A DNA stretch of 44,204 nt from a virus (Duplodnaviria > Caudoviricetes): IMG/VR virus record IMGVR_UViG_3300031460_000088, positions 1-44,204 of that record. One strand, given 5' to 3'. The position numbers and the translations under genes are program-made. The stretch's first letter is position 1. Every line of letters starts with the position of its first letter. Shown one piece after another: positions 3,071-42,241 of this stretch. Under the pieces are notes generated by a model, which saw nothing but the letters and a program-made list of their open reading frames with translations, made no database searches and had not been told where the DNA came from.

Positions 3071-4582
3071 ATGACTGACACCGCCACCCCCGCCAAGCGC
3101 ACCCGCATCGACACCCTCACCGACGCCGAACGCGCCACCTTCCCCGGCTACGTCGACCGGTGGACCGCCACCGGCCTCCGCACCGGCCCCCTCAACGCCG
3201 ACGAGTGGGCCCAGGTCGAGGCCGCCGCCCGCCGAATGTACGGGTACGCCGGGCTGCCGGAACCGCGGGTGTTCCTCGGCGTCGCGTCCCCGTTGGCTGC
3301 TGCGATAGCCGCCAGCGTGGCCGCTGAGGTCGCCCCTGCGGCAGCCGCGCACCTCGGGGACGGCGTGGAGGCCGGCGTGTGGGTCGGCGTGCGGGCCGGC
3401 GTGGAGGCCGGCGTGCGGGCCGGCGTGCGGGACGGCGTGGGGGACGGCGTGGAGGCCGGCGTGTGGGTCGGCGTGCGGGCCGGCGTGGAGGCCGGCGTGT
3501 GGGCCGGCGTGCGGGTCGGCGTGCGGGCCGGCGTGGGGGACGGCGTGCGGGACGGCGTGGAGGCCGGCGTGGAGGACGGCGTGGAGGCCGGCGTGGAGGC
3601 CGGCGTGCGGGCCGGCGTGTGGGACGGCGTGTGGGACGGCGTGGGGGACGGCGTGTGGGACGGCGTGCGGGCCGGCGTGTGGGACGGCGTGTGGGACGGC
3701 GTGGAGGCCGGCGTGCGGGCCGGCGTGCGGACCGGCGTGTGGGACGGCGTGGGGGACGGCGTGGAGGACGGCGTGCGGGCCGGCGTGCGGGCCGGCGTGT
3801 CTCTACTCGCGCCCTATCAAGAGTGGCTCCACGAACCCATCCGCCGGGGACTGAGCAAAGTTCGCACCCAGTGGTACGCCCAATACCGCGGCGGGAACCT
3901 CTGGTGCTCCTCGAACGCCTGGGCGACCTGGTTCCGCGACCACGGGCTCGACCTCGGCGACGACCTGTGGAACCGGCTCGACGCCGACAACACAATGTGC
4001 CTCGCCGGCCCCTCATGGTGGTTCGGCGGGCACTGTATCGTCTCCGACCGCCCAACCGAGCTCCACGTCGAGAACGTGGCCGGGGTCAACCGCCTCCACT
4101 GCGGCACCGGTACCGCGATCGCGTGGGCCGACGGGTGGGGCATCTACTCCTGGCATGGCGTGCAGGTCCCCGCCGACCTCATCGAGGACGGGTGGCCCAT
4201 CGACCGGATCATGCGTGAGGAGAACGCGGAGGTACGCCGGTGCGCCGTGGAGATCCTCGCCGACCGGGACGGGTGGGCCGGGATCATCCGCGCCGCCGGA
4301 TGGCAGCAGATCGGCGCTGACGCACCCGACCCCGGCAACCCCGGTCAGCGCCTGTCGCTGTACCGGGTCCCAGCCCTGACCGACCGTCGCGGCGTCGGGA
4401 TGGGCCTGTACCGCGAGCCGGTGAACCTGCTGCGCTGCACCAACGCGACAGTCGAACGCTCGGGTGAACGGCACGAATTTGGCCTGACCGTCCCAGCCGA
4501 CATCACCGACCCCACCGAAGCCAGTGCCTGGACCTTCGACCTGCCCGTCGACCTGTACCGGGCGCTTCAACGCGCCTGCTGA
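3071..4582 (+). CDS. DUF6745-like protein with internal tetrapeptide repeat array
   Basis: C-terminal SDRPTELH..RLHC.TG.AIAWADGWGIYSWHGVQVP..EENAEVRRC..EPVNLLRCTNAT..FGLTVP..ASAWTF. Confidence 0.85.
   Translation: MTDTATPAKRTRIDTLTDAERATFPGYVDRWTATGLRTGPLNADEWAQVEAAARRMYGYAGLPEPRVFLGVASPLAAAIAASVAAEVAPAAAAHLGDGVEAGVWVGVRAGVEAGVRAGVRDGVGDGVEAGVWVGVRAGVEAGVWAGVRVGVRAGVGDGVRDGVEAGVEDGVEAGVEAGVRAGVWDGVWDGVGDGVWDGVRAGVWDGVWDGVEAGVRAGVRTGVWDGVGDGVEDGVRAGVRAGVSLLAPYQEWLHEPIRRGLSKVRTQWYAQYRGGNLWCSSNAWATWFRDHGLDLGDDLWNRLDADNTMCLAGPSWWFGGHCIVSDRPTELHVENVAGVNRLHCGTGTAIAWADGWGIYSWHGVQVPADLIEDGWPIDRIMREENAEVRRCAVEILADRDGWAGIIRAAGWQQIGADAPDPGNPGQRLSLYRVPALTDRRGVGMGLYREPVNLLRCTNATVERSGERHEFGLTVPADITDPTEASAWTFDLPVDLYRALQRAC
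3362..3799 (+). repeat. 12-bp tandem repeat, 36 full units (GGCGTG NNG NNC; GV[E/R/W/G][A/D/V/T])
   Basis: Read directly in DNA and protein. Confidence 0.95.
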
Positions 4583-16413: not shown

Positions 16414-17093
16414 TCGTGGTGTGGCCCACCCATCGCAGGCACGCCGCCTACAGGGCCACAGCGGCCCGCTCCGCAGCGGCGCGACGAAACCTCGCCCACG
16501 CCCGCGCCGCCCTTCACGGCCGTCGGCGCACAGCGAAACAGCATGCCGCCGGGCTGGCGAACCTCGCCAAAGCTCGCGCCGCCGGCAGAACACGACCCCG
16601 CACCGCTCGACAGCTCGCTGCAGCTCGAGCGAACATCGCCAAAGCCCGCGGTGTCGCCAGAACCCGGCCACACACCGCTCGGCAACTTGCCGCAGCCCGC
16701 GCGAACCTCGCCAAGGCCCGGGCTGTCGCGAGAACACGACCCAGGACCGGCCGGCAACTTGCCGCAGCCCGCGCGAACCTCGCCAAGGCTCGAGCCGTCG
16801 CGAGAACACGGCCACGCACTGCGCGGCAGCACGCAACGTCCAAAGCGAACCTCGCACTGGCCCGCGCTATCGCCAGGACAAAGCCTCGCACCAGCCTGCA
16901 ACGCGCGGCCTCCAAGGCCAACTTTGCACTGGCCCGGGCTGTCGCCAAAGCACGACCCAGAACCGCTGCTCAGAAAGCAGCCTCGCGGCTCAACCTCGCT
17001 AACGCCAGGACGCGGCCCAGAAGCGCAGTCCAGAAGGCGGCGTCACGGCTCAACCTCGCCACTGGGCGAAGCCACCGCAGGAAACGACGATAG
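16401..17093 (+). CDS. Extremely basic Arg/Ala-rich 24-aa repeat protein
   Basis: About 9 repeats of RTARQLAAARANLAKARAVARTRP; repeats vary mostly at third codon positions in this frame; start may be GTG 16416/16419. Confidence 0.75.
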   Translation: MAGLVVVWPTHRRHAAYRATAARSAAARRNLAHARAALHGRRRTAKQHAAGLANLAKARAAGRTRPRTARQLAAARANIAKARGVARTRPHTARQLAAARANLAKARAVARTRPRTGRQLAAARANLAKARAVARTRPRTARQHATSKANLALARAIARTKPRTSLQRAASKANFALARAVAKARPRTAAQKAASRLNLANARTRPRSAVQKAASRLNLATGRSHRRKRR

Positions 17094-27012: not shown

Positions 27013-30000
27013 TGGCGAACTCCCTCTCCCTCGTCTGGGACCTGATCGCGGTCGACAACGCGTCGCGGACTTTCGAGAAGGTTGGGGCCTCCGCGGAGGG
27101 CGCGCATGGCATGATCGGCGGCCTCGTACTCGGGGTGGCCGGTGCCGCCGCAGGAGTGGCCGTCGAGTCGGTCAAGATGGCCGGCGACTTCGAGGCCGCC
27201 ATGACCCGGTTGATGACCTCCGCGGGTGAGTCGAAGGGCAACCTAAAACTAGTTGGGGACGGAATCCTCCAGATGGCCGGCCAGGTCGGGATCTCCGCCA
27301 CCGATCTCGCCAAGGGCATGTACGTCGTGGAGTCCGCTGGCTACCACGGGGCAGAGGCGCTCAACGTCCTCAAGGCGTCCGCGCAGGGCGCGAAGACCGA
27401 GAACGCGGATCTCGGCACCGTCGCTAACGCGGTTTCGACTATTATGCGGGACTTCGGCGCTTCCGCCGGAGATGCGACTCACGTCACGTCGACCCTGATC
27501 TCCGCTGTGTCTGTGGGCAAGACCAACTTCCAAGACCTCTCCGGTGCGATGCATGCGGTGATGCCCCGCGCAGCCGCGCTGCACATGTCGTTCCCTGAGC
27601 TCGCCGCCGATCTGGCGACGATGACCGCGCACGGCATGTCCGCGGAGCAGTCCGCGCAGAACCTCAACGGCGCCCTACGGAACCTGTCGAACCCGACGCT
27701 GGCGATGTCCAAGCGGATGGCCGACTTCGGCATCCAGTCCCACGACGTGTCCGCGAACTTGTCTAAGGACGGGTTGCAGGGGACCCTCGAGAAGCTGTCG
27801 GTCACGATCATGGACCGCATGGGCCCGGCGGGTACCCAGCTGAAAAGCGTGTGGAACCAGTCGAATCTGGCCGCGCAGGACGCGCAGAAGATGTTCGACG
27901 CCCTGTCGCCGAAGGCGCGGAAGCTGGCGCAGGACTACCGCGACGGCAAGATCCAGATGCACGACTGGACCGTCGGTGTCAAATACATGGACACTGCGAA
28001 CGGGAACCTGCTCAAGCAGTGGGCGGCCCAGGAGAACGCGTCTAAGGGCTTCTCGAATGCGCTGAAGACCGGTGGTGACACGGTCAAGACGTACACCGGC
28101 GCCCTGTCGGGCATGGTCGGTGGCCAGGAGGCCACCACGGTCGCGCTCATGCTGACCGGGGACCAATCGAAGTTCGCCACTGACAACATCAAGACCGTCA
28201 CCGCCGCGACGAATGACGCGAGTGGTGCGGTCAAGGGCTTCGGTGAGCAGCAGCAGACCCTGAACGGGAAGATCGCCGATATGAGGGGCGCCGTGTCGGC
28301 GCTGATGATCACGCTCGGCAACCAGATGGTGCCGATGGCGAAAGAGGCGTTCGACAACCTGAACCAGATCTTTGGGCAGTTCGCCAAGGGCTGGCGGGAG
28401 GGCTTCGCCGAGATCGGCCGCCTGGTGGTCACGCGCCTCACAGATACCTGGGGACCCCAGGCGACGGAGGCGTTCAACAGGCTGGGCGCCATCGCTGGGG
28501 AGTTCCGCAAGGGCTGGCGGGAGGGTTTCGCCGAGCTAGGCCGGCGGACTTTCACGATCCTCGGCGAGAACAACGACGCTATCCGTAACAAGATGATCGA
28601 GGTCTGGCACGACATTCTCCGCATCGTTGGCGAGAACAACGACAAGATCCGCGACAAGGTCATCGAGGTCAACGACGCGATCCGCGCCAAGGTCATTGAG
28701 GTCGGCGACGCGAACCGCGCGAAGGTCTACGAGGTCAACGACGCGATGCGGCAGAAGATCATCGACGTCAACGACGCGATCCGGAACAAGATCTTCGAGG
28801 TCAACGACGGCATCCGGCAGAAGATCATCGACGTAAACGATGGCATCCGGAACAAGGTCATCGAGGTCGGCGACGCGACCCGGAACTTCCTGTTCAGCAC
28901 CTGGTCGACGATCAGCGCGAACGCCACCAGTTGGTGGACCGGCATTGTCGACGGCATCTCCGGTATCTGGCACGGCATCGTCGAGAAGGTCAAGGGGCCG
29001 CTGAACGAGATCCTGACGTTCGTCAACGACCACTTCATCACCCCGCTGAACACCCTGTTCGAGAACATGCATGTCGGCATCAAGATCGACACGGTCAAGT
29101 TCGCCGACGGCGGTCTGGCGAGTATCCCGACCGGCGCGGCGCGCCACGCCGCCGGCGGTCCCGTCGGTGGCTACTCACCGCACGACCGGGCTGACAACAT
29201 CCCGGCCTGGCTGACCGCGGGTGAGTTCGTCCTGCCCGTCAAGGCGACGAACGCGCTACGGGCGCAGGGCGGCGACCAGCTCCTCGAGAGTCTGCGCGGC
29301 GGCGTCCTCGGTCGCGCGGACGGTGGCCTGGTTCGCGGCTACGCGGACGGTGGCAGCGTGTGGGACGCCATCAAGACCGGCTTGGGTGTCGCGGCGACCC
29401 AGACGGCCAACCCGGTCGCGACCATCGCCGCGGCGGCCACGTCGAACCCGCTCGACGCCATCAAGAAGATCGTTGCCTCGATCGTGTCCGGGATCGGGTC
29501 GGGTCCGTTCCCGCAGATTGCGGGCGCCGTCCTCACCCAAGCTGGTGAGGCACTCGCGCAGCAGGTCAAGGACGCCCTCGCCGCCATGAGCCAGAACGGG
29601 GCGTCGTCGACCGCGTCCGACGGGGCCGGCTCGTCGTCGGCCGTGCAGTGGGCCCTCGGTCATGTCGGCTCCAGCGGGTGGCTCGACAAGTGCCTCGCGT
29701 TCGTGAACGCGGCGTGGGGTCACAAGGTCAACTGGTTGGGGCTGCCTAGGGCGATCGACGCGTGGAACGCCGCGCCGGAGAAACACTCCGACACGAACCC
29801 ACCCGCTGGTGCCGCGCTGTTCTACACCACGGGGAACCCGGCTGGTCACGTCGACCTCGCCGTCGGACAGAACTCGATCGTGTCAACAGACCTCCCGGTC
29901 CGGGACAAGCTCGGACAGGTCGACTTCAACATGCCCATGTCGCAGTGGGGCGCGAAGTATCTCGGGTGGGCGATCCCCGGCGGCAGTGTCGCCGCCGTCG

Positions 30001-34340: not shown

Positions 34341-35063
34341 ATGACAGAGCCCGACGAGGTGTCGCTGCGGACCTTCCTGGAGCAGCGTATCGACGCCCAG
34401 GGCGCGGCGAGCAGCCTGTCCGACGCGGTGTCCGCGGAGGCGGTGCGGATCGCTCTGGAGGCGCAGAAGACGGCGTTGAGCGCGGCACTGGAGGCGCAGA
34501 AGCAGGCGTTGGAGGCGCAGAAGGAGGCGGTGCGAATCGCCCTGCAAGTGGTTGAGTCGGGCGCCACCTTGCACGCCATGAACCACGACCGGGCTCACGA
34601 GGCGCACGAGCGGGTGCACCGGCTGGAGAAGGAGTGGCTGGTGAAGTCGGAGGGGGCGATGGACACCCGCCTGTCGGCGATGAACCAGTTTCGGGAGCAG
34701 CTCAAGGAGCAGGCTGCGTCGTTCGTAACCCGTAGCGAGGCGGAAACTGTCGCCCTCGCCCGGCAGTCCCGCTTCGAGGTGGCCGCCGACGCGATCAGCA
34801 AGAGGGTCGCTGAGACCGAGAGAGCCCGCGAGGAGCTCCGGCTCGAAATGCAGGCGTTCCCCAACCGGAACGAGGTGGGAACCCAGATCAACGCCGTCAA
34901 CGCGAAGCTCGATGTTGCGGACGACGCACGCCAGAAGCAGGCGGAAGAGCTGGCGTCAATGCGGTCCCGGAGTCAGACCTTCCAGGTCATCATCGTCGTC
35001 GCGCTCCCGGTCCTGTCGATCCTGGTCAACGTCCTGTTCTCGTTCCTGCAGGCAAAGCCGTGA
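34341..35063 (+). CDS. Coiled-coil protein with C-terminal TM helix
   Basis: ALEAQK repeats, His-rich segment, C-terminal hydrophobic helix; GGAGG SD. Confidence 0.75.
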   Translation: MTEPDEVSLRTFLEQRIDAQGAASSLSDAVSAEAVRIALEAQKTALSAALEAQKQALEAQKEAVRIALQVVESGATLHAMNHDRAHEAHERVHRLEKEWLVKSEGAMDTRLSAMNQFREQLKEQAASFVTRSEAETVALARQSRFEVAADAISKRVAETERAREELRLEMQAFPNRNEVGTQINAVNAKLDVADDARQKQAEELASMRSRSQTFQVIIVVALPVLSILVNVLFSFLQAKP

Positions 35064-35160
35064 CTCTCCCAGACGGCGGGCGGCCGTTTTCTCCGGGTGA
35101 TCTTCTGCTGCTGCTCCAGCGGGGAGCGCCGGTGACCTCATGGACCAGAAAGGCAACATC

Positions 35161-35970
35161 ATGATGCAAGGATTCGACATCGCGAACGTCAACGGGAGCG
35201 GCATCATCGGCCGCGCTCTGACCGGGGACTTCGTGATCTGCAAGACCACCGAGGGGCTCAGGTTCGTTGACGGCGACCACGACTCGTTCGTGGCGCAGGC
35301 ACGCTCGGCGGGAAAGCTGGTCGGGCACTACCACTACGCGCACATCAACAACAGCGCCACCGTTGAGGCTGACTTCTTTGTGCAGCACGCGTCCGCGCAA
35401 CCCGGCGACGTCATGGTTCTCGACTTCGAGCCCTACGGCCAGGCCGGCGCCGACTCCGCGTACGCGACGTGGATTCTCGAGTTCTGCCGCCGCGTCCACG
35501 CCGCGACGGGTGCGCGCTGCTGGTTGTACCTGAACGACGACATGGCTTCCCGCTCGATCCGCGCTGGAAGTCAAGCCGACTGCGACGCGATGAGGGCCGA
35601 GCTGCCGCTGTGGAAAGCCTGCTACACCGGCGCAGCGGGCAGCGCCTACGGGTTCGTCATGGCCGCTTGGCAGCACACCGACCAGGGCGGCATCGACCAA
35701 AACACGTTCTACGGCGACGCCTCGACGTGGGCCGACTTCGCTGTCCCAGCACCACCCGCACCACCCGCACCCGCACCGACACCCCCTGGAGATGACATGG
35801 CTGTTTCACCCAACTTCGAGCCCAACTTCGACGCCCTCAACACCGACCTGCGCGCGTGGTGCAAGGCGATGGACGCAAAGTTCGACGCCCTCAACAAGGA
35901 CCTCCGAGCCGACCTGGCCCGCAAGCAGCAGGAGCTCGACGCGATCCAGGCGAAGGTCCTCGGGAAGTGA
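35161..35970 (+). CDS. Endolysin 1, GH25 muramidase
   Basis: GFDIA, FVICKTTEG, GHYHY, VLDFE (DxE), WQHT..IDQN; Pro linker; coiled-coil tail. Confidence 0.92.
   Translation: MMQGFDIANVNGSGIIGRALTGDFVICKTTEGLRFVDGDHDSFVAQARSAGKLVGHYHYAHINNSATVEADFFVQHASAQPGDVMVLDFEPYGQAGADSAYATWILEFCRRVHAATGARCWLYLNDDMASRSIRAGSQADCDAMRAELPLWKACYTGAAGSAYGFVMAAWQHTDQGGIDQNTFYGDASTWADFAVPAPPAPPAPAPTPPGDDMAVSPNFEPNFDALNTDLRAWCKAMDAKFDALNKDLRADLARKQQELDAIQAKVLGK
35794..35967 (+). repeat. 174-bp direct repeat, copy 1
   Basis: Identical to 36423-36596. Confidence 0.95.
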
Positions 35971-36602
35971 CCGTAGATTGGCGCGGCGTCCCTGTGGACG
36001 CCCGCACCGCGGCGCAGCTCGACGAGGCGAACCGCCTCATGCCGCACATCCCGTTCTGGCCCGCGCAAGGGTCGTACTCATCGGCGGTCGCCGCGTCCGC
36101 GTCGACCCACTCCGGCGGCGGCGCCGTCGACATCAAGGTCGGCGGCCTGTCCGACGCGGACATCGACACGATCGTGGACGTGATGCGCAGCGTCGGTTTC
36201 GCAGCGTCACGCCGAACCCCGGCGCAGGGGTTCACGCCGCACGTCCACGCCATCTCCGTCGGCTGCTCGGACCTGTCCGGGATCGACAACCCTGTCGTCG
36301 GCACCGCCGCATGGCAGGTTCAGGAATACCTCGCCGGACGTAACGGCCTCGCCGGTCGCGGCGCCGACGACGGCGCCCGCAACCACGTCGGAGTGACGTG
36401 GGAAAGCTACCAAGGAGCGAACGACATGGCTGTTTCACCCAACTTCGAGCCCAACTTCGACGCCCTCAACACCGACCTGCGCGCGTGGTGCAAGGCGATG
36501 GACGCAAAGTTCGACGCCCTCAACAAGGACCTCCGAGCCGACCTGGCCCGCAAGCAGCAGGAGCTCGACGCGATCCAGGCGAAGGTCCTCGGGAAGCCAT
36601 GA
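35967..36602 (+). CDS. Endolysin 2, zinc peptidase (M15-like)
   Basis: QGSY..SASTHSGGGAVD (H-x6-D), PHVH, QVQEYLAGRNGL; same C-terminal tail as endolysin 1. Confidence 0.85.
   Translation: MTVDWRGVPVDARTAAQLDEANRLMPHIPFWPAQGSYSSAVAASASTHSGGGAVDIKVGGLSDADIDTIVDVMRSVGFAASRRTPAQGFTPHVHAISVGCSDLSGIDNPVVGTAAWQVQEYLAGRNGLAGRGADDGARNHVGVTWESYQGANDMAVSPNFEPNFDALNTDLRAWCKAMDAKFDALNKDLRADLARKQQELDAIQAKVLGKP
36423..36596 (+). repeat. 174-bp direct repeat, copy 2
   Basis: Identical to 35794-35967. Confidence 0.95.
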
Positions 36603-36682
36603 GCGTCCTCGAGTGGGTCGGGTTCGCCCTGCTGATGGCTGCCCTGCTCGCCGCCGCGCTGTTCCCAACCGGGCGGCACTGA
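36599..36682 (+). CDS. 27-aa single-TM peptide
   Basis: MSVLEWVGFALLMAALLAAALFPTGRH; overlaps both neighbours. Confidence 0.55.
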   Translation: MSVLEWVGFALLMAALLAAALFPTGRH

Positions 36683-37302: not shown

Positions 37303-37307
37303 TACCC

Positions 37308-37550
37308 GTGATCGTCCAGCGGCCGTCGTGGGTGGTGTGCCTCCACTGCGGCCGTTCCATCCGCACGGTCGCGGAGATCATCACCCACGACGGCGTGTTC
37401 GTCCGCATGGGCCTGCCGTCCAAGCTCGAGCGCCGGTGGGTCGGCCGATGGTCGCGCGGGCACGTCGGCCCGCTCTGGCACACCACGGCGCGTGATCCGA
37501 AATCGTTCTACGCAACCAAACTCGCCCACGAAGGAGTCACCACGCCATGA
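37308..37550 (+). CDS. Small CxxC protein, paralog 1
   Basis: VCLHCGRSI..RRWVGRWSRGHVGPLWH; paralog of 38885-39139. Confidence 0.7.
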   Translation: MIVQRPSWVVCLHCGRSIRTVAEIITHDGVFVRMGLPSKLERRWVGRWSRGHVGPLWHTTARDPKSFYATKLAHEGVTTP

Positions 37551-37903
37551 GCACCACCGCCACTATCGAAGCGAAGGTCATCGCCGCCGCAGCCGGGTCC
37601 GGGCTCGGCGCCGCCGTCGGCACGTTCCTGCTCTGGGCCCTCGGGGCAACCGTGTGGGGTGCCCCCGCTGACGCCGGACACGCTGCCACCGCCGCCGCCG
37701 CCGTGCCCGAGCCGGTCGGCGCGCTGCTCGTCATCGTCGTCGGCATCCTCGGTGCCGCGGTCGCCGGGTACGCCGCGCCGCACACGCCCCGCCCGGACCT
37801 GCACGGTCAGCCCGCGTCGGCAGCCGCGGAGCCCGCTGCAGCGTCGACGGAGTCCGCGGCTGCGGCGGTTCCCGCGCCGCCGGTCACACCCCCGGCGGTC
37901 TGA
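37547..37903 (+). CDS. Holin-like membrane protein
   Basis: IEAKVIAA, two TM helices, GYAAPHTPR; AAGGAG SD. Confidence 0.75.
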   Translation: MSTTATIEAKVIAAAAGSGLGAAVGTFLLWALGATVWGAPADAGHAATAAAAVPEPVGALLVIVVGILGAAVAGYAAPHTPRPDLHGQPASAAAEPAAASTESAAAAVPAPPVTPPAV

Positions 37904-37905
37904 CC

Positions 37906-38385
37906 ATGGCAGACGAGTCTGTAGTCAAGGTCGAGCCGGTATCGGGTCCCACACCGGCGCAGCAGGTCGCCGCCCACTCCGCGGCGCAGGGCCACAAGTA
38001 CCTGATGCACTTCCCAGCCCACCCGGCGAGGAAGGATGATCCGCACTACGTGGACTTCAACGCCTACCACCGCAAGTACTCCAAGACCGCCACGTGCTTC
38101 ATCGGCGACAGGGTCGGAGTCGACCACTGCAGTGACGGACCGCTTGAGTTGCATCACGCACACGTGGAGTTCTCCCTTCAGAACGGGGTCGACCTGAAGG
38201 CGCTGGAGCACGACTACCCAGGGATCTCCGATCCAGAGGCGGTCGGCAAGTGGATCGAGTCGGAGGCGAACTTCCGTTGGCTGTGCGCTTACCATCACCG
38301 CGGCGCGGCTGGCGCACACACCGCCGCACACGCGGATTGGGAGGCGTCACAGTACATCCAAGGCCTCATCGACCCGAAGCCATGA
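37906..38385 (+). CDS. His-rich HNH/His-Me-finger-like protein
   Basis: C..C..LELHH..N...LC..HHRG..G.H. Confidence 0.6.
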   Translation: MADESVVKVEPVSGPTPAQQVAAHSAAQGHKYLMHFPAHPARKDDPHYVDFNAYHRKYSKTATCFIGDRVGVDHCSDGPLELHHAHVEFSLQNGVDLKALEHDYPGISDPEAVGKWIESEANFRWLCAYHHRGAAGAHTAAHADWEASQYIQGLIDPKP

Positions 38386-38855: not shown

Positions 38856-38884
38856 AGGCCTCACGGCGGGGATGAGGGAAGACC

Positions 38885-39139
38885 GTGATCGTGCAGCATC
38901 CGTCGTGGATAGTGTGCCTCCACTGCGGCCGGTCGATTGCGACGGTCGCAGAACGGATCGTCCACGACGGCGTGCAGATCCAGATCGGTTTGCCGTCGAA
39001 GTTCGAACGCCGCTGGGTCGGGCGGTGGTCCCGCGGGCACGTCGGCCCGCTCTGGCACATCGCCACCGACCCGACCGCGTTCTTCGCGGCCAAGCTCGTC
39101 CACCAAGAAGTCACAACGCCCATGAAGGAGCAACCATGA
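38885..39139 (+). CDS. Small CxxC protein, paralog 2
   Basis: Paralog of 37308-37550. Confidence 0.7.
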   Translation: MIVQHPSWIVCLHCGRSIATVAERIVHDGVQIQIGLPSKFERRWVGRWSRGHVGPLWHIATDPTAFFAAKLVHQEVTTPMKEQP

Positions 39140-39817: not shown

Positions 39818-42241
39818 GTGACGTACCAGTCCACCGTCCTCGCCGACTCCCCCGTCCGGTACTACCACCTGGACGAGACGTCCGGGACGACGTGGGTCGA
39901 CTCCGGCTCTGCTGCCGCGAACGCGACGATTACGGGGTCGCCGACGCTCGGGCAGCCGCCGGCTGGGACGATCAGCGGCAAGTCGGTCACGTTGTCCGGC
40001 GCCCAGAACGGCGAAGCCTCTTCGCTGGCTTTTACGACCTACATCTCGGTGGAGGCGTGGTTCAAGACCACATCGACAGTGGCGAACCCGCTGACGATGT
40101 GTGCGGAGTATGACGGCAACTCCTCGGGCAGCGCGTCTGGTTGGACTCTTCGCCTCGACAGCAGCGCACCCGTCTTCTACGTGTGGAATGGTGCGACCTC
40201 CCCTCCTGCGCTGGCTGGCGCGGTGTCGACTACGCCACGCAATGACGGCTTGTGGCATCACGTGGTCGGGACGTACGACGGCACCACGATTCGCCTCTAC
40301 CTCGACGGCGTGCAGATCGCGTCGGCCGCGCTCGGCGGCGGCAACGGTTACGTCCGGCTCAACGGGGTGACGCCGGTCAAAATCGGCTCGAACGGCGCGT
40401 CCGGTGTCCAGGGCGAGAACTGGATCGGGAGCCTCGATGAAGTAGCGGTCTACGCCGCCGCGCTGACGGCTGCTCGGGTGTCGGCGCACTACACGGCCGG
40501 GACTGCGGTGACGTCGACCCCGGCATCTGGGTCGGCGGCGTTGACCCTGACCGCAGCGGGGTCCATCTCTGGGCGGGTCACTGGCACCGCCTCGCTCGCG
40601 CTCACGGCCACCGGAACCACGTCCTCGGTGGCAGCCACCACCGGCGCGGCCACCCTCGGCCTGACAGCGGCAGGCGCCGCGGGTGCGGCCACCGCCTCGG
40701 CCGCTTCGCTGCGACTGGCCGCGGCAGGCACCACCGCTGCACCCGCCACTGCACCCGCGGCGGTAGCCCTTGTCGCGTCCGGCTCATCGGCGGCCACCCC
40801 CACAAGCTCCGCAGTCGTCGCCCTGTCAGGAGGCGCGGCGGCTGCGGCCAACCTCCCCGCCTCGCCCGCCGCCCTCGCCCTGACGGCCTCCGGGTCGGCG
40901 GGTACGTCCACCGCCGGACCCGCCGCGCTGGCGTTGACCGCTACTGGCGCGGCTGGCACCACGACGACGGCCAGCGCCGCGGTCGCCTTGGCGGCCACCA
41001 GCGCGACTGCTGCATCCGCCACCGCACCGGCCTCGCTGACACTCACCGCCGCAGGCACCGCGGGGTCCGTCGGCGCCGCGACCGGGACGGCCGCGCTGGG
41101 CCTGAACGCCACTGGTGCCGCTGCTGCCCCCGCCACCGCCCCGGCCGCACTCGCCTTGACCGCCAACGGGGCGACCGCAGCCGGCGTCACCTCATCCGCT
41201 GCCGTGACCCTGACCGCTGCCGGGAACGCCCCCCCTTCGGTCACCTCGAGCGCCTCCCTGGTGCTGACCTCGACCGGGGCGACTGTCGCGCCGACCTCGG
41301 CGCCCGCGGCACTGACGCTCACCGCGACCGGAGCGTCTACCGTCCAGCCGTCCGGCGCCGCCGCCCTGGCGCTCACCGCAACCGCGCAGACCAACCCCAC
41401 CGTCGCCGGACCCGCCGCGCTCACGCTGACCGCTGGCGCTGGCGCTACCGCTCAGGCGACCTCGGCGGCCCCGCTCGCCCTAGCCGCGGCAGGCACGTCG
41501 TCTGCTGGCACGACCGCCGCCGCAGCTATGACGCTAGCGGCCAGTAGCACGGCGCAGACCGCCGCAACCGGGACCGCGACGCTTGCGCTCACCGCCGCGG
41601 GGTCGGCCTCCGCTGTCGGAGCGCCCACCGGCGGTGCTGCCCTCACGGTCACCGCCGGCGGCACCACCGGCAGCCTGACCGGTTCGGTGGCCACGCTGGC
41701 GATCACGGCCACCGGGGCGACCGTAGCTGGCGCCACCTCGAGCGCCGCGGTCGCCCTGGCCGCCGCCGCGAGTAGCGGCGCCCCAGCGACCTCGATCGCG
41801 ACCGTCGGGCTCACCGCGACCGGAGCCGCCGCGTCCGTCACCTCCGCCACCGGCACCGCCTCCCTCACCCTGGCCGGCACGGCTCAGGCTGGGGCGCTCG
41901 CCACCAGCAACGCCGCCATCGCCCTCACCGGCAGCGGCACCGCCGGGGTCAACGCCCTCGCCAACGCGCTGCTCACGCTGACCGCCTACGCCATCGCCAC
42001 GGCACGCGCCACGGCCGCCGCGCAGCTCGACCTGACCGCTGCAGGCGCGGCCTACGGCAACCCGACCACCATCATCTACGGCAAGGCCACCGGGCCGCTG
42101 TGGGTCCACACCGTCCGCGGCGCCCTCCGCGCCGCCCAGGCCGGCGGGGGGGTCCGCACCGAGCAGGCCGCCGGGCGGCTGACCGCCCCGGGCACGGGCG
42201 GACCGCTACGCACCTACACGACCCAAGGAGGCCTCCGGTGA
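39818..42241 (+). CDS. LamG/concanavalin-domain fibre protein with about 28 Ala/Thr-rich 18-20 aa repeats
   Basis: VLADSPVRYYHLDE, SVEAWFK, NDGLWHHVVGTYDG..LYLDG, GSLDEVAVY; repeated A.L.LTA.G. Confidence 0.85.
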   Translation: MTYQSTVLADSPVRYYHLDETSGTTWVDSGSAAANATITGSPTLGQPPAGTISGKSVTLSGAQNGEASSLAFTTYISVEAWFKTTSTVANPLTMCAEYDGNSSGSASGWTLRLDSSAPVFYVWNGATSPPALAGAVSTTPRNDGLWHHVVGTYDGTTIRLYLDGVQIASAALGGGNGYVRLNGVTPVKIGSNGASGVQGENWIGSLDEVAVYAAALTAARVSAHYTAGTAVTSTPASGSAALTLTAAGSISGRVTGTASLALTATGTTSSVAATTGAATLGLTAAGAAGAATASAASLRLAAAGTTAAPATAPAAVALVASGSSAATPTSSAVVALSGGAAAAANLPASPAALALTASGSAGTSTAGPAALALTATGAAGTTTTASAAVALAATSATAASATAPASLTLTAAGTAGSVGAATGTAALGLNATGAAAAPATAPAALALTANGATAAGVTSSAAVTLTAAGNAPPSVTSSASLVLTSTGATVAPTSAPAALTLTATGASTVQPSGAAALALTATAQTNPTVAGPAALTLTAGAGATAQATSAAPLALAAAGTSSAGTTAAAAMTLAASSTAQTAATGTATLALTAAGSASAVGAPTGGAALTVTAGGTTGSLTGSVATLAITATGATVAGATSSAAVALAAAASSGAPATSIATVGLTATGAAASVTSATGTASLTLAGTAQAGALATSNAAIALTGSGTAGVNALANALLTLTAYAIATARATAAAQLDLTAAGAAYGNPTTIIYGKATGPLWVHTVRGALRAAQAGGGVRTEQAAGRLTAPGTGGPLRTYTTQGGLR

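Follow-up and report, generated by a model that had tools for sequence, protein, structure and literature searches.

Two unrelated tandem lysins of a temperate phage end in an identical, predicted helical tail with a likely translation start of its own

Endolysin genes often seem to contain a second translation start, i.e., internal starts were predicted in 51.5% of 3,780 endolysin genes (from phages of Gram-positive bacteria), compared with 15.2% of portal genes, in the excerpts of Pinto et al. (2022, PMC9430671) on which we draw. The same excerpts describe lysins with a free C-terminal subunit, namely Lys170 and LysIME-EF1 (1:3), LysP7951 (1:5), and CTP1L, CD27L, and CS74L (2:2 proposed), as well as LysJavan488, whose products do not associate. 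Here, we describe two adjacent lysin genes in a 44,204-base virus record with 68.6% GC (IMG/VR IMGVR_UViG_3300031460_000088; the whole stretch is hereafter called the window). A GH25 muramidase (lysin 1, 35161..35970) and a predicted zinc peptidase (lysin 2, 35967..36602) end in the same 174 base pairs (bp), which encode a predicted helical tail. Both genes lie on the + strand, as do the repeats, start sites, junctions, and neighboring membrane-protein genes given below.

Parts of this arrangement are already known, i.e., many endolysin genes have internal starts, and both split lysin genes and the shuffling of lysin domains have been described. What seems new, as far as the open-access literature goes, is an identical helix-only tail on two tandem unrelated lysins, with a second gene that is present or absent among natural populations. 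Like lysin 1, LysP7951 has a GH25 domain (PMC9430671, same excerpts). Compared with such two-polypeptide endolysins, the predicted product here is one long helix without a recognized wall-binding domain, two identical copies of the tail sequence stand on unrelated tandem enzymes, and between these copies lies a cassette that natural variants lack. Another point of comparison is PlyC of the streptococcal phage C1, which is made of PlyCA and a PlyCB ring, PlyCB being encoded by a separate gene and the two catalytic domains sitting in one chain. As in PlyC, the catalytic domains would join to a small repeated subunit. Unlike in PlyC, this subunit has no gene of its own and would be translated from internal starts, both copies being in frame at the ends of the lysin genes, and the two catalytic domains are carried by separate, optional genes. 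Split lysA genes are also reported in Gordonia phages, 7 of the 16 reference phages having two single-domain lysin genes according to passages of Pollenz et al. (2022, PMC9671378). Likewise, our two adjacent genes encode fewer than 300 amino acids (aa) each (269 and 211), with one catalytic domain apiece and different predicted activities, but those passages of PMC9671378 describe neither a shared or identical tail nor internal starts for the Gordonia genes. An extract of Smug et al. (2023, PMC10684548) gives a two-genome example of endolysins with unrelated N-terminal domains that share a near-identical C-terminal part, whereas here both forms stand side by side in one genome and the tail is 100% identical. 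In the open-access literature, subscription journals being largely outside the search, we found no paper on an identical, separately translated, helix-only tail on two tandem unrelated lysins.

The repeat is direct and perfect. As an earlier note on this DNA had claimed, positions 35794-35967 and 36423-36596, at the ends of the two lysin genes, are identical over 174/174 nucleotides (nt), at a spacing of 629. In both genes, the repeat opens one codon (GAC) 5' of an in-frame ATG (35797 in copy 1, 36426 in copy 2) and stops at the last Lys codon, after which comes TGA in lysin 1 and CCA-TGA in lysin 2. The different Shine-Dalgarno (SD)-like sequences seen earlier ahead of these codons are confirmed as well, i.e., GGAG with a 5-nt spacer for copy 1 (35788-35791) and AAGGAG with an 8-nt spacer for copy 2 (36412-36417), both being likely ribosome-binding sites. 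On the other hand, the free subunit of 57 aa that had been proposed holds for copy 1 and not for copy 2, which would give 58 aa ending in KP (6.4-6.5 kDa for the two predicted peptides).

Such a twin could be an assembly artefact, in which two phage variants from one sample have been fused at the tail that they share. We compared the contigs at the lysin locus in eight runs, treated as two sets of four, i.e., X1-X4, of which X1 may be the source sample of the window and X2-X4 are separate studies, and X5-X8. In 4/4 runs of the first set, a 515-nt contig (35938-36452) opens with the repeat end, closes with the repeat start, contains lysin 2, and has about the depth of the flanks, and the piece corresponding to the repeat exceeds both flanks in depth (50 vs 35/32, 21 vs 8/7, 47 vs 34/30, and 385 vs 193/191), contig depth being a rough guide only. 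As this is the assembly graph expected from two repeat copies around lysin 2, it argues for their reality. In X6, a single contig runs from 35938 through copy 2. The two lysin genes overlap cleanly (GTG over TGA), and the lysin 1 and lysin 2 proteins are each on record from 4 contigs. A chimera would fit the fact that contigs found together carry the identical tail on different enzymes, and that no contig among those listed for the eight runs spans both copies. Taken together, we find an assembly error, which the earlier note had listed as a possible refutation, very improbable.

Lysin 1 (alternative starts 35140/35164) is made of a GH25 domain, a proline-rich linker ending in GGAG (35746..35796), and the shared tail. 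Its identification as a GH25 muramidase, first made from the letters, is borne out by PF01183, which matches residues 23-178 well above the curated cut-off (85.2 bits for a Pfam cut-off of 27, E 9e-24), and by the DFE found at residues 88-90, an acidic D-x-E that we take to be the GH25 motif; the protein also matches the PHROG endolysin family phrog_291 (E 7e-37). Lysin 2 starts at the GTG at 35967, which overlaps the TGA of lysin 1. Its structure model (model confidence, pLDDT, 93) and fold searches suggest the Hedgehog/DD-peptidase (M15-like) fold, and H48, D55, H92, and H94 are invariant in 95/95 aligned homologues, in a pattern, H-x6-D…H-x-H, presumed here to be that of the zinc ligands in the Hedgehog/DD-peptidase (LAS/M15-like) superfamily. 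Identity with zinc peptidases of this group (Ply500, LysB4, VanX/VanY, and the Streptomyces DD-peptidase 1LBU) is 13-20%. As lysin 2 matches no Pfam or PHROG family, the label M15-like rests on fold and motif. Of the M15-like peptidase announced previously, the invariant residues thus stand and the fold probably does, but no Pfam M15 match does (0/95 family members at E <= 0.01), and lysin 2 is predicted to work like an M15 peptidase outside Pfam M15 membership. Neither lysin had been credited with a recognizable cell-wall-binding domain, and Pfam detects none in either gene; among the lysin 2 homologues, 12/95 have PG_binding_1 and 5/95 have LysM.

The lysin 2 catalytic domain (35967-36410) belongs to a widespread family of phages and of Kribbella, Amycolatopsis, and Micromonospora chromosomes (305 matches in one search and 323 genome loci in another), for which no match was found in cultured phages, and it represents a peptidase-like family without a Pfam or PHROG model. 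The window contains integrase, portal, capsid, and tape-measure genes, and its sequence is that of a temperate tailed phage. Its host would be an actinobacterium, since the high GC and the nearest lysin relatives point there; these relatives are found in the chromosomes of the three genera just named and, for phages, mostly in those of Arthrobacter and other Gram-positive bacteria. All 13 listed runs containing window sequence are rock metagenomes, and 8 of the 13 contain at least half of the sampled words. Below, related loci (L001-L012) and database proteins (P numbers) are given by working labels of this analysis, L007 and L008 being JAABUM010006048.1.

Several lines of evidence argue for an internal start in both genes. 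GGAG stands 5 or 8 nt 5' of the ATG in 10/10 copies of the module, which have two upstream alleles only and are hence not 10 independent events; both upstream alleles are found with either GH25 or amidase domains. This GGAG needs the rare codon GGA (58/915 Gly codons in the window genes), and the opening codons of the tail, GCT (116/1197) and GTT (59/808), are rare, yet invariant in 7/7 alleles. As a control, we used the 333 in-frame internal start codons of 28 genes picked as likely real. Among these, the local RNA fold is weakest at 35797 and eighth weakest at 36426. The SD energies of the two sites are -6.4 and -7.2 (median of real starts, -5.95), an SD as strong being found at 46/333 and 31/333 internal starts, and, for each site, none of the other 333 equals it in SD strength and unpaired probability at once. 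Moreover, the start is located between domains, after GH25 and the proline linker in lysin 1 and after a low-confidence linker (residues 151-170) in lysin 2. It is kept at the same position in P0122, P0123, and P0145, a distant relative (L003) has GAGGAGG followed by a TTG at the equivalent place, and gene callers opened a gene of 56-61 aa at the tail Met in four database records.

The wider lysin 2 family shows a comparable trend, many of its phage members having an SD and a Met before very diverse tails. Of 118 homologues, 109 were parsed and 83 have tails of at least 25 aa. An acidic motif and a Met come right after the catalytic domain in 31 of these 83 tailed proteins, including lysin 2 and P0002, vs 12/2241 and 10/581 control windows, a pattern picked after the sequences had been seen. 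An SD and a start follow the catalytic domain in 24/52 viral genes vs 27/147 control windows, and bacterial chromosomal homologues are without excess (10/53 vs 33/159 control windows). Since GGAG and ATG are always set among rare codons in a stretch with unusually little predicted structure, both lysin genes likely have an internal start, and we are fairly confident that a free 6.4-kDa peptide would be made from each. The earlier note had spoken of a separately translatable coiled-coil module, and the SD, the weak fold, the rare codons, and a one-helix model all support it at the level of sequence.

In the model of lysin 2, residues 160-208 form one predicted helix (pLDDT 91-97) after the linker. 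The tail is amphipathic, with a hydrophobic moment maximal at 98-100 degrees, it has no net charge, and across seven alleles 10/13 positions of its hydrophobic stripe are invariant, vs 16/34 other positions. This conserved stripe, together with precedent, suggests that the tail probably self-associates as a coiled-coil-type bundle. It matches no Pfam or PHROG family above cut-off, and we found few close relatives (7 of 11 candidate proteins, 3 strong matches among 1.84 billion representatives, and 9 metagenome loci). The tail is found behind GH25 (P0119, P0122), M15-like (P0002), and lysozyme-like+amidase domains (L002, P0121, P0123, P0124, P0145), lysozyme-like being our own label, from no search, for the N-terminal domain of the amidase-type lysins. 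More distant versions follow Amidase_3 (L003) and another GH25 (P0128). An amidase-type gene and a GH25 gene on different contigs (L012 and L008) have 27 upstream nt and 85/85 module nt in common. Because the same tail follows these three kinds of catalytic regions in relatives, it reads as the standard tail of this clade's lysin slot and is not peculiar to the twin. As a separate observation, L002 carries AGGAGG and a GTG between its N-terminal and amidase domains (2273-2288), so that the three-part lysins of the clade may have one more internal start.

Recombination between the repeats had been expected to be able to delete lysin 2, and this form is seen in nature. Indeed, in X5 (13,426 nt, depth 18.4) and X8 (4,421 nt, depth 10.2), a contig joins 35793 to 36423, so that a 629-bp unit (35794..36422), made of one repeat and the lysin 2 catalytic part, is missing; the break can be anywhere within the repeat, all 174 letters of which fit either side of the join. 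The joined contigs keep the end of copy 2, since they are gap-free over 36423-36670, and P0144 (2 contigs, the longest of 42,608 nt) is an unchanged lysin 1 with a final Pro, i.e., the KP of copy 2, as the join predicts. In X5 and X8, lysin 2 is found only as short fragments (depth 4.3 and 2.7), and the single-lysin form is the main assembled one in these 2/8 runs. X6 and X7 contain pieces of the twin form. X5 and X8 look like one lineage because they have three common upstream differences without counterpart in X6 and X7. Lysin 2 is an optional cassette, and therefore a muramidase-peptidase complex cannot be obligatory. We consider it highly probable that lysin 2 was lost by homologous recombination between the repeats. 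Alternatively, insertion of the 629-bp unit into a single-lysin phage would yield the same two forms, and repeat collapse by the assembler would yield the same join as in X5 and X8, although lysin 2 came out whole in X2 at depth 8. Amplification of lysin 2, which the earlier note had also considered, was not observed in these contigs, which could not have revealed it.

The perfect identity of the two repeats appears recent because tail alleles elsewhere differ by 7-25%. Compared with L010, copy 2 matches at 57/60 upstream and 74/80 downstream positions, including the CCA-TGA end, but at only 129/162 positions of the module. There is thus a good chance that the two copies were recently homogenised, probably by copy 1 overwriting lysin 2's own tail, a reading that rests on one relative (L010); the K-P-stop junction also ends two other nearby genes. 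Just before GH25, sequence comparison with L006 and L007 reveals a recombination scar (35060..35164). Its first 18 nt are identical to the start of the L006 lysozyme-like+amidase lysin gene, and the remainder is similar to the 3' end of the gene, of phrog_1128 type, found ahead of GH25 in L007. As the scar joins these two pieces, GH25 likely displaced an earlier lysin in the slot. The lysis region is a recombination hotspot. L007 and L008 are GH25+tail genes separated by 4.1 kb, with 96.7% identity over 854 nt and a frameshift near the start of the second one, and the pair is either a real duplication or a chimeric assembly. Besides, the motif AAGCCRTGA, i.e., Lys-Pro-stop overlapping a start codon, ends three lysis-region genes (35055-35063, 36594-36602, and 38377-38385; 3 matches vs 0.55 expected, with 2/100 shuffles reaching 3), and could possibly be a shared junction for gene shuffling.

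The explanation that we find best as a whole, toward which we lean slightly, combines a swappable self-starting tail, a mixed bundle, and a droppable second gene. The tail would be a swappable lysin module with its own likely translation start, each lysin gene would yield a full-length enzyme and a free tail, and the tail would self-associate into a helical bundle. Because both tails are identical in sequence, muramidase, predicted peptidase, and free tail could mix on one bundle, lysin 2 being dispensable and the mixing optional, with no fixed three-subunit machine. On facultative GH25/peptidase/free-tail oligomers taken by themselves, we remain tentative and lean slightly the other way. Several observations weigh against a dedicated three-part lysin such as the earlier note had in mind. 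Most relatives that carry the module have a single lysin, two of the eight runs assemble mainly into the single-lysin form, and no tail is shared with a neighbor gene in 52 viral and 53 chromosomal lysin 2-family loci (2.5 kb on either side, or 4 kb in the case of L001). Of the related virus records, 3/4 have one copy each (one complete, the others partial). L009 and L010 begin inside lysins and L012 ends inside the module, so that twins there could be missed. In a more ambitious scheme, which seems to us rather unlikely, the tail, free and fused, would be a combinatorial scaffold bundling any mix of muramidase, peptidase, and amidase, the identical DNA keeping the subunits compatible and letting the population gain or drop the second enzyme as a hedge across host cell walls.

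Besides the artefact discussed above, the twin could be a transient mosaic of independent enzymes. The tail would then be each lysin's own targeting or stabilizing helix, whether or not the free peptide is made, the twin would come from hotspot recombination, and the identity would reflect recent copying only. This accords with a lysin slot where we find the scar before GH25, several catalytic domains in relatives, and one contig with two GH25 copies, one of them frameshifted, as well as with the single-lysin form of X5 and X8, the 105 lysin 2-family loci without a second twin, and the non-associating products of LysJavan488 (PMC9430671, same excerpts). However, a hydrophobic stripe conserved over ~48 residues usually needs a partner helix, the conservation of the internal-start signals across alleles fits a free subunit with a job, and the twin is seen or pieced in 6/8 runs; we judge such a mosaic unlikely. 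We give still less credit to a regulatory role, in which the free tail would pair with the tails of the full-length lysins or with a cassette membrane protein (e.g., a 27-aa peptide), so as to tether the enzymes or keep them inactive until the holin triggers lysis. Such a role is consistent with a tail devoid of recognized wall-binding domain and of net charge, with the 27-aa membrane gene directly after it in the window and five related loci, and with the secondary translation product that regulates CTP1L according to a passage of PMC4777826. But the upstream coiled-coil membrane gene is replaced in L002, L011, and L012 with the tail retained, and, in the characterized cases considered here, the free subunit activates (LysP7951) or helps lysis (Ply2638A).

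If the tail does bundle different enzymes, it would be a natural connector of 57 residues with which lysins of several activities could be built. The twin arrangement is also a small case for two open questions, i.e., the role of the unnamed C-terminal products of actinophage lysins, and the gain and loss of lysin domains by recombination.

Around the lysins, three genes encode predicted membrane proteins. The upstream gene of the lysis region (34341..35063) encodes a coiled-coil protein with a C-terminal membrane segment (hydropathy maximum of 2.73 at residue 216), without a confident Pfam or PHROG family, which may have a holin-like role. This gene is present in L006 and L008, and unrelated genes take its place in L002, L011, and L012. 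On the other side, a gene overlapping the lysin stop (36599..36682) encodes 27 aa with a single membrane segment (hydropathy 2.21) and could be a holin accessory; it stands directly after the module in L002, L006, L008, L010, and L011, and one gene later in L009. Just after it, 36670-36679 is an insertion hotspot where several runs diverge, X2 having 1,225 other letters. Further downstream, 37547..37903 encodes a membrane protein that is a weak holin candidate (hydropathy 2.41; Pfam GTA_holin_3TM, E 0.086, below cut-off).

Elsewhere in the window, two small paralogous genes with a Cys-x-x-Cys motif (37306-37482 and 38883-39059) are 81% identical over 177 nt, and the open reading frame at 3071-4582 contains an array of ~39 in-frame 12-nt units from 3238. 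Degenerate 72-nt repeats (5 copies) are found at 16467-17057 and 33-nt repeats (8 copies) in the tape-measure gene at 28571-28916. After the lysis genes comes a protein of 807 aa (39818-42241), in which a Laminin_G_3 (ConA-like) domain is accompanied by long repeats rich in Ala and Thr.
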